From an uncultured Haliangium sp. (GTDB lineage: Bacteria > Pseudomonadota > Gammaproteobacteria > GCA-001735895): a DNA stretch of 64,000 nt. The stretch spans positions 1,503 to 65,502 of the forward strand of contig CAXMQY010000056.1 in the NCBI GenBank assembly GCA_964195735.1. The letters are read 5' to 3'. The notes under the pieces are model-generated. The model saw only the letters and a list, made by a program, of their open reading frames with translations, made no database searches and was not told the origin of the DNA. This document shows, in pieces, positions 23,139 through 63,560 of the stretch. Within the stretch, counting starts at the first letter, position 1. Every line of letters begins with the position of its first letter. The position numbers and the translations under genes are program-made.

Positions 23139-23228
23139 TTGTCATCCCGCGGCGCGACCGCGGGATCCAGAGTCGAAGTCTTTTTCCACACAATACTGGA
23201 TACCGCGGTCAAGCCGCGGTATGACAAA
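23139..23228. repeat. pair of inverted REP-like hairpins (family 2). TTGTCATCCCGCGG-cgcga-CCGCGGGATCC and its inverse GGATACCGCGG-tcaag-CCGCGGTATGACAA.
   Basis: Two hairpins with 9-bp stems lie in opposite orientation, related to the TGTCATTCCCGCG hairpins at 7041-7115. Confidence 0.55.
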
Positions 23229-23250
23229 TCAGTTGGGATGCGTTCGGTCT

Positions 23251-23289
23251 GGTAGTGCTGGTGCTGGTGCTGGTGCTGGTGCTGGTGCT
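23251..23289. repeat. hexanucleotide microsatellite (GCTGGT)5 with degenerate flanking copies
   Basis: ggtagt gctggt gctggt gctggt gctggt gctggt gcta, intergenic between betA and the MOSC gene. Confidence 0.8.
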
Positions 23290-23492
23290 ATCGTAGCTGT
23301 GCAGCAAACCCGCGAGCTTGTCCCTATTCGAAGGAATTCGAAGGGGTAGACACCGTTTTCCTGGGGACACTTGCAACGCCCGGCTGCCACCTGAGTCTCG
23401 TGGTACGAATCGACCGATACTCGATAAGGGAGTAATATTCGTAACCCGCGGTCAGCTGGCGGTACCGGGCTGGCGCCGAACTTGGGAGAGAC

Positions 23493-24149: not shown

Positions 24150-24300
24150 CAGGATCCTGAGCAGGGACACACACTTTAGGCTAGTCCCTGAGCAGGGACA
24201 CACACTTTACGATAGGATCCTGAGCAGGAATCCTGAGCAGGGACACACACTTTAGGATAGGATCCTGAGCAGGGACACACGCTTTAGGATTGACATTGAT
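24150..24300. repeat. tandem array of REP elements (core CCTGAGCAGGGACACACACTTTAGG, 4 full copies plus 1 partial) immediately upstream of the RAYT-like gene
   Basis: Direct reading shows repeated cctgagcagggacacacacttta units at a period of about 32 bp. Confidence 0.7.
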
Positions 24301-24349
24301 TGGTTCCGAGGCGTAAGATTTGGGAATCTCAGACAAAAGGAATTGACTG

Positions 24350-25346
24350 ATGACCCGACCCAGAAAGGTTCTCATCTCGCTCGCAGATACCCAGTATTAC
24401 CACATCACCTCGCGTTGCGTACCCAAAACACTTCGTGGGGCAGGCTCTACGCCGTGCTTTTCTTTGCGGGGTAGATCATTACTCAGGCCAAAGTTACGAA
24501 CACCGGCGACAATGGGTCGTGGACCGGATACGGATACTCTCGTCTCTGTTTGCGATCGATGTCTGCGCCTATGCGGTGATGAGCAATCACTACCACCTGG
24601 TGCTCAAGCTTTGTCCGGACCAGCTGGACGATCTACCTGACGAGCAAATTATGGATCGGTGGTGCGCGATGTTCAAAGGTCCGTTGTTGGTCCAGCGTTA
24701 TCGAAGTGGAGAAGCCCTCTCGGCAGCCGAACGCTCAACGGTGTCCGATATAGTTAACGTCTGGCGTAACAAGCTCGCCAGCATCAGCTGGTTCATGCGC
24801 TGCCTGAACCAGCCCATTGCCCGACAGGCTAATATCGAAGACAAATGCACCGGCAAATTCTGGGAATCCCGATTCAAATCTCAAGCGCTCAAAACCGAGG
24901 AGGCGTTGTTGTCCTGTATGGCCTATGTCGACCTCAATCCCGTTCGTTCCGGGGAGGCAGCTAGCCCAGAGGGCTCAAGCTACACCAGCATTCAGGAACG
25001 GATCAAACCAAAATTTATCTTAGACCATGCGATTAACGACCAGCACCAATGCGGTGACCTGCTGGATTTCAATATGCCGCTCAAACCGTTGCGACACTTT
25101 GACGGGGATCTGACAGTTCGGTCTCAGAAGGGCATTTTCTTCGCCTTTCGAGATTACCTGGAGCTGGTGGATTGGAGCGGCCGATGTATTCGTGACGATA
25201 AGCGAGGCCATATCGCCAATGAATTGCCGACGATTTTGACCAGGCTACAGGTATCTCCAGAACGATGGCATCTCAGTACTACCCAGTTCGAAGTCATTCA
25301 CGCACATCGATTCAATCGAGTAACTCCCAGTATCGATACTGGATAG
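24350..25346 (+). pseudogene. REP-associated tyrosine transposase (RAYT; IS200/IS605-superfamily HUH Y1 transposase, long form), disrupted by a +1 frameshift near 24440-24470
   Basis: ORF 24350-24640 encodes MTRPRKVLISLADTQYYHITSRCV. The overlapping ORF 24435-25346 in another frame continues RRAFLCG...AYAVMSNHYHLVLK, which carries the HUH motif. Joining the two requires excising about 28 nt. REPs flank the gene in inverted orientation. Confidence 0.55.
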
Positions 25347-25524
25347 GTGCTCTCTACAAAACTGGATTTGCGAATAGATTATTTTCCAGATCGTTTACGG
25401 GCAGTTGATTTCAAAATCTGGCGATCTAGTTATTTAACTAAACTAAAAGCCAAAACCGACACATTCGTTATCGCAAATTGGAGGCTGAAACCTCCAGCCC
25501 GACGGGTAGCATAATCCTGCCATG

Positions 25525-25548
25525 TGGGTGTGTGTCCCATCTTAACCA
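25525..25548. repeat. REP copy in inverse orientation (TGGGTGTGTGTCCCATC) downstream of the RAYT-like gene
   Basis: Reverse complement of the GGGACACACAC core. Confidence 0.55.
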
Positions 25549-30639: not shown

Positions 30640-30830
30640 TTTCAGGGCCGTGTATGCCCACTGGTAAGTGTGTGTCCCATGGGTGCCCCGCTGGCGGTCG
30701 CACTCGTGCGACTCGTGCGACAAGGCGTGTGTCCCACTGGTGCCTCCACCCACTGGTGCTCCACTGGATTCAGGAGTGTGTGTCCCACGGGTGGGATGGT
30801 GAGCCACTGGTGATATCCAGGTGGTCAGCG
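30640..30830. repeat. composite REP/BIME-like repeat zone. At least 3 copies of GTGTGTGTCCCAYGGGTG plus repeated CCACTGGTG motifs and a GTCGCAC-TC-GTGCGAC palindrome.
   Basis: Direct reading. The same GGGACACAC core flanks the RAYT-like gene. Confidence 0.55.
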
Positions 30831-58317: not shown

Positions 58318-58350
58318 CGAAAGTGTGTGTCCCTTCATCATGTGTCCCTT
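58318..58350. repeat. REP copies (inverse orientation), GAAAGTGTGTGTCCCTTCATCATGTGTCCCTTCATCATT
   Basis: Same GGGACACAC core as the RAYT-flanking REPs. Confidence 0.55.
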
Positions 58351-63397: not shown

Positions 63398-63560
63398 AAT
63401 GGAGTCACGACCAGGCAACCACGACCAGGGACACACGCTTTACTGGCACGACCAGCGTACGACCGGCACGACCAGGGACACACGCTTTACTAGTCACGAC
63501 CAGGGACACACGCTTTACTCGTCCTGCGAAAATGTGTATCCCTTCGAGATTTTGTATGGA
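63398..63560. repeat. tandem REP array, 3 copies of CACGACCAGGGACACACGCTTTACT plus one degenerate inverse copy
   Basis: Read directly. Same core as the RAYT-flanking REPs. Confidence 0.6.

Follow-up and report, generated by a model that had tools for sequence, protein, structure and literature searches.

A 28-nucleotide insert recurring at one codon of long Y1 transposase genes, described from an insertion-sequence-like locus of an uncultured Haliangium sp.

Transposases of TnpA_Y1 subclass 2.3 have a median length of 325 amino acids (aa), carry the motifs NHYH, WE and YVDLNP, and occur in Chromatiales and Alteromonadales, with several copies per genome (Quentin, Siguier, Chandler and Fichant 2018, PMC6006769). 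According to the same study, the subclass is rooted inside subclass 2.1, it has insertions in the protein core, tolerated between beta1 and alphaA, and neither automatic nor manual searches turned up sequences like repetitive extragenic palindromes (REPs) for it. The locus described here holds a gene, tnpA, that by its length and motifs belongs to this subclass. It lies in a stretch of 64,000 nucleotides (nt) from an uncultured Haliangium sp. (contig CAXMQY010000056.1, positions 1,503 to 65,502 of the forward strand), which is called the window below. Its gene is split by 28 nt that are also found at the same codon of diverged relatives.

In the scheme of Quentin et al., subclass 2.1 corresponds to the TIRYTs that Di Nocera et al. 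described in 2013 (PMC6006769). A TIRYT and its surroundings form a TIRtron: a gene resembling those of REP-associated tyrosine transposases (RAYTs), with terminal inverted repeats (TIRs), many of which contain GGGGWSAS (Di Nocera, De Gregorio and Rocco 2013, PMC3733652).

The window gene is an HUH/Y1 gene of 322 codons, running from 24350 to 25346 on the plus strand, and it is interrupted by exactly 28 nt between V24 and R25. The earlier note, made from the letters alone, had recognised a long-form RAYT-like HUH/Y1 gene with an insertion of about 28 nt, shifting the frame by +1, and both the motifs and the homology of the family bear this out. Deleting the 28 nt in silico (24421-24448, equivalent to 24422-24449, with an A on both sides) yields a protein of 322 aa. 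A protein search gave thousands of matches, and the top 120 homologues are almost all exactly 322 aa long, at 75-80% identity; in an alignment the junction SRCV/RRAFLCG is nearly invariant. The restored length and this junction place the frameshift to the base.

Two open reading frames (ORFs) share the gene. The first, 24350-24640, contributes 24 native codons (MTRPRKVLISLADTQYYHITSRCV) and is out of frame thereafter. It had been said to end at SRCV; the homologous part does, but the ORF itself continues. The second, 24435-25346, picks up the gene again at RRAFLCG...NHYHLVLK, just as had been read. The parts of the locus are as follows.

24152-24289, plus strand: left-end array of four full units and one truncated unit, each unit consisting of flank GGATCCTGAGCA, core GGGACACAC(A/G)C and TTTAGG
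24164-24174, 24195-24205, 24240-24250 and 24272-24282, plus strand: full cores of the left array
24219-24231, plus strand: truncated unit of the left array
24290-24319, plus strand: sigma-70-like promoter TTGACA-18-TAAGAT, 10 of 12 consensus matches
24338-24341, plus strand: ribosome-binding site AGGA, downstream of the promoter
24350-24420, plus strand: 5' part of tnpA, codons 1-23 and the GT of Val24
24421-24448, plus strand: 28-nt insert ACCCAAAACACTTCGTGGGGCAGGCTCT, between the second and third base of Val24, no target-site duplication
24449-25346, plus strand: 3' part of tnpA, third base of Val24, R25 to G322 and stop, otherwise intact
24588-24596, plus strand: HUH motif H71-Y72-H73, within the 3' part of tnpA
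24924-26, plus strand: Y183 of the YVDLNP motif, within the 3' part of tnpA
25347-25527, plus strand: 3' non-coding interior of about 180 nt, with a short conserved block ACGGGCAG(T/G)T, read by eye
25528-25538, minus strand: right-end inverted core GGGACACACAC, single copy, an exact 11-nt match to the upstream core

The insert, best parsed as the 28-nt element RCCCAAAACACTTCGTGGGGCAGGCTCY, is not confined to this locus. An exact-match search with its central 25-mer yielded 32 metagenome stretches, and at least a dozen projects are represented among them. In 16 of these 32 the 28-mer sits at the same codon of a diverged tnpA homologue, and this one codon of one gene family makes up 17 of about 30 distinct sites. 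The orientation is fixed at all 17. The base after the insert can be A, G, C or T, being the original wobble base of the valine, and taking the 28 nt out restores V-R(R/C/Q/G)AFLCG in every inserted tnpA. A T precedes the insert at 28 of the 30 distinct sites (13 of 13 outside tnpA, 15 of 17 within it).

The inserted genes are not simply copies of each other. The flanks of the insert have a median pairwise identity of 0.50 and a maximum of 0.88, and the contigs with an inserted tnpA range in GC content from 37 to 58%. For the window copy the nearest inserted gene reaches 0.76, and a gene free of the insertion comes closer, at 0.84. The same goes for L099, so the insertion is polyphyletic. Given that at least 16 diverged relatives from other metagenomes carry it at this very codon, the insert looks like a tiny and undescribed mobile element, and not like a random frameshift. 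The earlier note had called the insertion an inactivating one. The gene is indeed disrupted, but what disrupts it is a discrete, recurring sequence.

Outside tnpA, the 28-mer is found in an IS256/Mutator transposase gene and in an rve-type transposase gene, and in both cases its removal restores the ORF. It also occurs at the C-terminal end of an unidentified ORF (L084, L086, L109) and in several intergenic hairpins or terminators, with three tandem copies in the loop of one terminator (L095). The cleanest case is L102, a tandem repeat in which the neighbouring unit is an empty site, gacgccgcgt^ttgctttgc. Comparing the empty with the filled site fixes the boundaries of the insert, and shows a clean 28-nt insertion without target duplication. 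The left flank ACGCYGCGT^ is common to the tnpA site and three unrelated sites, L102, L110 and L111.

Diverged copies of the 28-mer exist as well, and were found only incidentally: L085 and L088 with two mismatches, L123 with two changes, and L122 with a 27-nt variant that is in frame. In L085 (3552-3661) and L088 (125-234), two inverted 28-mers, one of them with the 2 mismatches, lie 53 nt apart within an IS256-family transposase gene, an arrangement like that of a REPIN dimer. The variant in L122 (2060-2100) reads ACCAAAACACTTCGTTGGGCAGGCTCT.

Most inserted tnpA genes have acquired additional stops or deletions. Several of the copies that bear the 28-mer are truncated at one point, …AYAVM/KT, just before the HUH motif (L123 1-420; P0121-P0123). 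In L123, the gene for a large serine recombinase of 699 aa (Resolvase, Recombinase and Zn_ribbon_recom) follows directly past this shared break, so that an integrative element seems to use the transposase gene as its attachment site there.

At the window itself, the insertion is real and not an assembly error, because L115, an independent assembly of the locus from another ENA sample, carries the insert at the identical place. A further contig, L116, breaks 3 nt into the 28-mer. That L115 and L116 end at or within the 28-mer would be expected if it were multicopy in those communities. Since the window copy is otherwise intact, it may be a young pseudogene or may still be expressed in some way.

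The insert has no stop codon in any of its six frames, has no TIRs, and folds no better than shuffled versions of itself (z score about 0). Its 3' part together with the CG of Arg25 does form a terminator-like hairpin, CGTGGGG-CAGG-CTCTACG at 24434-24460, followed by the T-rich codons of RAFLC, but such hairpins are no commoner here than in shuffles (1 found, 1.4 expected). Rfam has no match for the 28-mer. The window contains no further copy with up to 5 mismatches, nor any other full or partial one, which rejects a local origin. A phage or plasmid origin is rejected likewise, viral contigs and plasmids having yielded no match. The two halves never occur apart from each other in 0.8 Mb of fetched loci, so the 28-mer is not the scar of a larger element. 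It is not a miniature inverted-repeat transposable element either: it lacks TIRs, and neither L102 nor the restored ORFs show a target duplication. A restriction or adapter artefact at GTAC is rejected by the base after the insert, which varies with the valine wobble base.

The protein fits the published subclass closely. It has NHYH at residues 70-73 (as NHYHLV), then KFWESRF, and YVDLNP at residues 183-188 (as AYVDLNP), so the HUH and catalytic tyrosine motifs come in the expected order. Against Table 1 of Quentin et al., length and motifs make the window protein a TnpA_Y1 of subclass 2.3 (PMC6006769). Shared with the subclass are a length of about 325 aa, NHYH/WE/YVDLNP, gammaproteobacterial hosts, several diverged copies per genome, a long C-terminal tail and a lack of REP hairpins. 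Hosts of the homologues include Marinobacter, Shewanella, Psychromonas and Ectothiorhodospira, among others.

Homology of the window family to RAYT and Y1_Tnp is weak but significant. The Pfam model Y1_Tnp scores the window protein alone at an E-value of 0.085, under the gathering score, and matches 18 of 20 diverse family members, with a best E-value of 4.3e-5. The NCBIfam equivalog model REP_Tyr_transpos (NF047646) gives 2.5e-11 and 43.7 bits, which is below its curated cutoff of 80, and the alignment covers only the C-terminal half of the model. A search of PDB sequences with the transposase found no match, and an AlphaFold model built from 11 sequences is poor, with a predicted local distance difference test (pLDDT) score of 41.

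The ends of the element are the second subject. The earlier note had placed 4-5 REP units upstream of the gene and an inverse copy downstream. The numbers hold up, with four full units and one truncated one at 24152-24289, and 11 exact nt at 25528-25538. In the window, the terminal core GGGACACAC(A/G)C measures 11-15 nt and is not palindromic.

This core is a property of the family. In 79 loci from named genomes, almost all genes have the pattern GACA[CG][CGA]CA about 80 nt before the ATG. It faces inward on both sides: upstream there are 77 forward and 5 reverse occurrences, in 53 of 74 loci, and downstream 104 reverse and 5 forward, in 49 of 71 loci. The proximal core lies 7 nt before the -35 box TTGACA in the window. 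Upstream sequence was read for four close relatives: L001, L003 and L007 have the same spacing, and in L002 a duplication stretches it to 17 nt. The leader TTGACA...TAGGAT...ATTCTCAGACAAA.GGAATTGACTGATG is kept in L001-L005 and L007. Intact homologues L001-L003 have the same layout as the window, and relatives have arrays of the inverted core 150-250 nt past the stop codon.

One metagenome-assembled genome (MAG) contains two copies of the element, with 97% identity along 1307 nt. The exact limits of their homology are GGACACCCA, directly after a T, and TGGGTGTCTATTAT. Because this copy-to-copy homology stops exactly at the cores, the core is the terminal inverted repeat of an IS-like unit (IS, insertion sequence) of about 1.3 kb. 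There is no second ORF between the ends. Contigs from other samples have identical MOSC and OadB neighbours, and diverge right after 24152 and right after the oadB stop. Strains without the element at the two junctions would give this picture. A target-site duplication of the whole element was not seen: by eye, the outer left and right flanks are unlike each other in the window, L001 and L003.

On two contigs without a right end beside oadB (L119 4135-4209 and L120 3729-3803), GGCAGGATAATGC is found about 50 nt past the stop. It nearly matches GGCAGGATTATGC, just inside the right end of the window element (25500-25525), and is either a remnant or a coincidence.

In these respects the locus is much like a TIRtron. 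A RAYT-like gene is flanked by terminal inverted repeats and not by REPs, the 11-nt core is perfectly inverted, and it marks the limit of copy-to-copy homology. The TIR motif GGGGWSAS agrees with (N)GGGACAC from the window at 7 of 8 positions (PMC3733652). The TIRs of TIRYTs are also moderately abundant as singles, dimers and clusters (PMC3733652), and the window cores occur solo as well. There are also differences. TIRYTs are mostly of subclass 2.1, shorter, with a helix-turn-helix tail; the repeat in the window is only 11-15 nt long; its arrays, unlike those of TIRYTs, hold locus-specific flank DNA and truncated cores; and an intragenic mini-insert has not been described for TIRYTs.

Away from the element, the core is found at three more places in the window.

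30668-30786, minus strand: three intergenic cores in a solo array, whose own flank is CACC[C/A][G/A]T
58323-58350, minus strand: solo intergenic site, GATGAA and a partial core, then GATGAA and a full core
63428-63513, plus strand: solo array between genes, three cores and truncated units, flank CACGACCA

In total the window has 12 core sites, all intergenic, where 0.94 would be expected. What the clusters at the transposase locus and at 30.7, 58.3 and 63.4 kb have in common is only the core of 11-15 nt. The outer 6-13 nt are specific to each cluster, yet repeated within it, and the bases preceding the core differ by locus (CAG, GTG, ATG, AAG). The usual series is a unit of flank with a core of variable length, followed by a unit of flank with a full core. 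The 8-mer adjoining the left core on its outer side is repeated in the 60 nt upstream at 21 of 56 loci, compared with 0.8% of random positions.

Larger duplications of this kind exist as well. One in Aeromonas caviae measures 345 nt: AAATCT with a left end and codons 1-115 stands directly before AAATCT with a left end and the full gene. N-terminal gene fragments of 36-115 codons with their own left end lie directly upstream of full copies in L012, L042, L048, L063, L072 and L121, and C-terminal fragments downstream of full copies in L016, L031, L034, L057 and L071. A protein search with short queries gave nothing but short ORFs; many short N-terminal ORFs of the family are on record, including P0125-P0160, and some of these bear the insertion.

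One breakpoint of the arrays is fixed a few bases outside the core, while the other is variable. From their sequence, the arrays are irregular local duplications of flank and core; repeated breakage and repair, or aborted copying, at the end of the element may have produced them. They are dynamic, since L115 has 2 units at the same locus where the window and L116 have 5. A further contig, L118, stops in the second unit, and agrees with the window and L116 up to there.

What the comparisons show is how the locus is built, that its ends are conserved, that it is polymorphic, and that the 28-mer recurs with precision. The explanation we consider probable, with room for doubt, is that of an IS-like, TIRtron-type element with its tnpA switched off by a separate 28-nt miniature element, with a transposase of the same family acting in trans. 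The element, of subclass 2.3, consists of promoter, 322-codon gene, some 180 nt of 3' sequence and inverted cores as its outermost parts. Breakpoints at its ends cluster a few bases outside the core, leading to irregular tandem duplications of the flank with part or all of the core, which are the arrays; the same occurs at solo core sites elsewhere in the genome. The miniature element inserts 3' of a T without target duplication, and has struck a single position, inside the valine codon of SRCV/RRAFLCG, in many diverged family members. If a same-family transposase cut and rejoined single-stranded DNA at these short sequences in trans, it could have produced the arrays and also spread the 28-mer. 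In that case the window copy would be a recently inactivated pseudogene.

HUH/Y1 enzymes, as is established for IS200/IS605, cut and rejoin single-stranded DNA without target duplication. If one enzyme is to be named for the rearranged ends and for the movement of the 28-mer, a subclass 2.3 transposase is therefore the obvious candidate. The responsible enzyme, the single-strand mechanism and the reason for the site preference are all inferred. The 28-mer resembles IS608 and ISDra2 in particular in its orientation-specific insertion 3' of a short target without duplication. The elements as a whole are different. IS200/IS605 ends are subterminal hairpins, not inverted repeats, and the target is a defined tetra- or pentanucleotide. 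Their TnpA is about 150 aa long, often with tnpB, compared to 322 aa, no significant end hairpins and no second ORF in the window. The smallest mobile derivatives of IS200/IS605 that we know of are far longer than 28 nt.

Why codon 24 would be chosen has two candidate answers. One is recognition of the protein-constrained sequence CGN-TGY-GT^N-CGN-CGN, which L102, L110 and L111 partly share. The other is action in cis, by the transposase on its own gene. There is also a lead from the insert: its 3' half, GGGGCAGGCTCT^AC, loosely resembles core and tail, which read GGGACAGACACTCT^ACC in L003 and GGGACACACGCTTT^AC in the window. This resemblance is only a lead. A more daring version holds that the 28-mer is a self-targeting single-strand substrate of subclass 2.3 transposases, homing into codon 24, where it might be a brake or reversible off-switch on transposase copy number. 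We hold this version to be rather doubtful.

Several points weigh against the proposed explanation. The link of the subclass 2.3 transposase to the core and to the 28-mer is one of inference. The likeness between 28-mer and core is loose (GGGGCAGGCTCT and GGGACAGACACTCT), and a random 28-mer has an estimated chance of about 5% of containing a 9-mer that departs from the core pattern by at most one mismatch. That the hits agree in the 25-mer follows in part from the way they were searched for. An uninterrupted allele of the window gene was not found, the next best match being at 80%, so a recent insertion or excision at this locus is undocumented. Intergenic targets of the 28-mer are strong hairpins, with z scores of -3 to -6, whereas the tnpA target has none (about 0.4), so no single simple structural rule fits all sites. 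Finally, transposase genes may be enriched among the targets simply because dispensable genes tolerate frameshifts.

The last point leads to the strongest rival, in which an unrelated enzyme or process moves the 28-mer. Its recurrence in tnpA would then be a coincidence at the protein-constrained CGN TGY GT^N CGN CGN GCN, helped by survival of frameshifts in dispensable genes. This fits with the finds in IS256-type and rve-type transposase genes and intergenic hairpins, with the left flank that L102, L110 and L111 have in common with the tnpA site, and with the weakness of the similarity to the core. The tnpA of subclass 2.3 is the sole recurrent neighbour protein in the 32 contigs, but nothing ties it functionally to the 28-mer. 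On the other side, this rival has to explain why one codon of a single gene family accounts for 17 of the distinct sites, of which there are about 30. The absence of target duplication, the strict orientation and the insertion 3' of a fixed base are hallmarks of HUH/Y1 single-strand chemistry, and no alternative mobilising enzyme was seen in the 32 contigs. We think this rival possible, if on the unlikely side.

It is improbable that the locus is what the earlier note called a classic REPtron, here taken to mean a domesticated, single-copy RAYT with its cognate REP hairpins, broken by an ordinary frameshift. The protein is RAYT-like, a Y1 enzyme is accompanied by short, dispersed repeats in inverted orientation, and the homologues are labelled 'REP element-mobilizing transposase RayT' by the Joint Genome Institute (JGI). 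For a REP inside its own transposase gene there is even a precedent, in subclass 2.4 (PMC6006769). However, those insertions are in frame, at variable places between HUH and Y, while the 28-mer is out of frame, at the same codon, upstream of HUH.

The repeats themselves also fail to fit. REPs are hairpins with a GT[AG]G foot, and the window repeats are neither. Two-unit stretches fold at -5.2 and -5.5 kcal/mol, with z scores of -1.35 and -2.09 against shuffles, which is not better or only marginally better, and the pairing is between the duplicated flanks, not inside a single unit. No GT[AG]G foot was found at the core repeats, and REP hairpins are therefore rejected. So of the cognate REPs said to flank the gene, the inverted and dispersed copies remain, but as a non-palindromic core of 11-15 nt with locus-specific flanks. 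The NCBIfam score remains well short of its cutoff, Quentin et al. found no REP for subclass 2.3 (PMC6006769), and the 'frameshift' is a recurrent discrete element. Domestication is unsupported too, since the gene family acts like a multicopy IS: one MAG holds two copies at 97% identity, partial tandem copies occur, and some strains apparently do without the element.

Slightly less probable still is that the insert is read through or acts as a switch. A +1 shift at CCC-AAA-A (24422-24428) would give V-PKHFVGQAL-RR, with a loop of 9 aa, or precise excision of the 28-mer would reactivate the gene. Subclass 2.3 is known to tolerate an insertion between beta1 and alphaA (PMC6006769). The 28-mer is free of stops in six frames, the +1 path gives Leu (CTN) before R25 whatever the wobble base, and the window gene is otherwise intact. 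The 27-nt variant (P0129/L122) even encodes exactly SRCV-PKHFVGQAL-RRAFLCG. On the other hand, most inserted genes are truncated or further damaged, and that includes the in-frame variant, whose gene breaks off after 71 codons. An allele with the insert excised was not found, and CCC-AAA-A is not known as an efficient +1 site. Translational bypass is rejected, as the take-off and landing codons are mismatched (GTA and CTN).

A private indel or assembly artefact, suggested at most by the window being a single reading of the locus and by the 275-aa P0001 being the only protein on record for the allele, is refuted by L115 and by the insert in 16 other homologues, which come from 12 or more sequencing projects, and has practically no probability left.

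The spacer between betA and the MOSC gene, further upstream, has repeats of other kinds. At 23140-23230 in the window it contains the palindromes TCCCGCGG-cgcga-CCGCGGGA and ATACCGCGG-tcaag-CCGCGGTAT, which look like genuine REP-type hairpins of the source genome and are unrelated to the GGGACACAC core. A similar repeat, GTCATTCCCGCG...CGGGAATCC, is present in L111. The same spacer has a hexanucleotide microsatellite, (GCTGGT)x6, at 23254-23290.

Neither the gene nor its TIR-type setting is new in kind: they are variants of TnpA_Y1 subclass 2.3 and of the TIRtron. No associated repeats had been reported for subclass 2.3 (PMC6006769), and here there are, throughout the subclass, a conserved inverted terminal core, arrays from flank duplication and at solo sites, and a recurrent 28-nt intragenic insert. 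The literature searched contains no report of ends for subclass 2.3, and no paper on the subclass later than 2018. It does not contain the 28-mer sequence either, and text matches to the core sequence were irrelevant. We believe the family-wide terminal core, the arrays of flank and core and, above all, the 28-nt insert at one codon to be undescribed.

There is a practical consequence for annotation. Inserts of this sort break transposase genes up into small ORFs, and pipelines then list these as proteins in their own right, of which the truncated 275-aa call P0001 is an example.

No branch of the RAYT/IS200 superfamily is longer or less understood than subclass 2.3, and the only systematic study gave it no DNA partner (PMC6006769). 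This locus and its relatives offer candidate ends, in the form of an inverted core of 9-15 nt, along with ongoing rearrangement of these ends and a candidate minimal substrate. The ends and the substrate would make the biochemistry of the subclass testable with short oligonucleotides.

Whichever explanation holds, it is unusual for 28 nt without target duplication to turn up again and again at one codon in hosts of such different base composition. Either a tiny element chooses its target very precisely, or a short intragenic sequence is under strong selection. If the self-targeting version were true, bacteria would have no smaller autonomous-looking mobile DNA unit on record than the 28-mer, and the arrays of flank and core at the ends of the element would be footprints of the same reaction.

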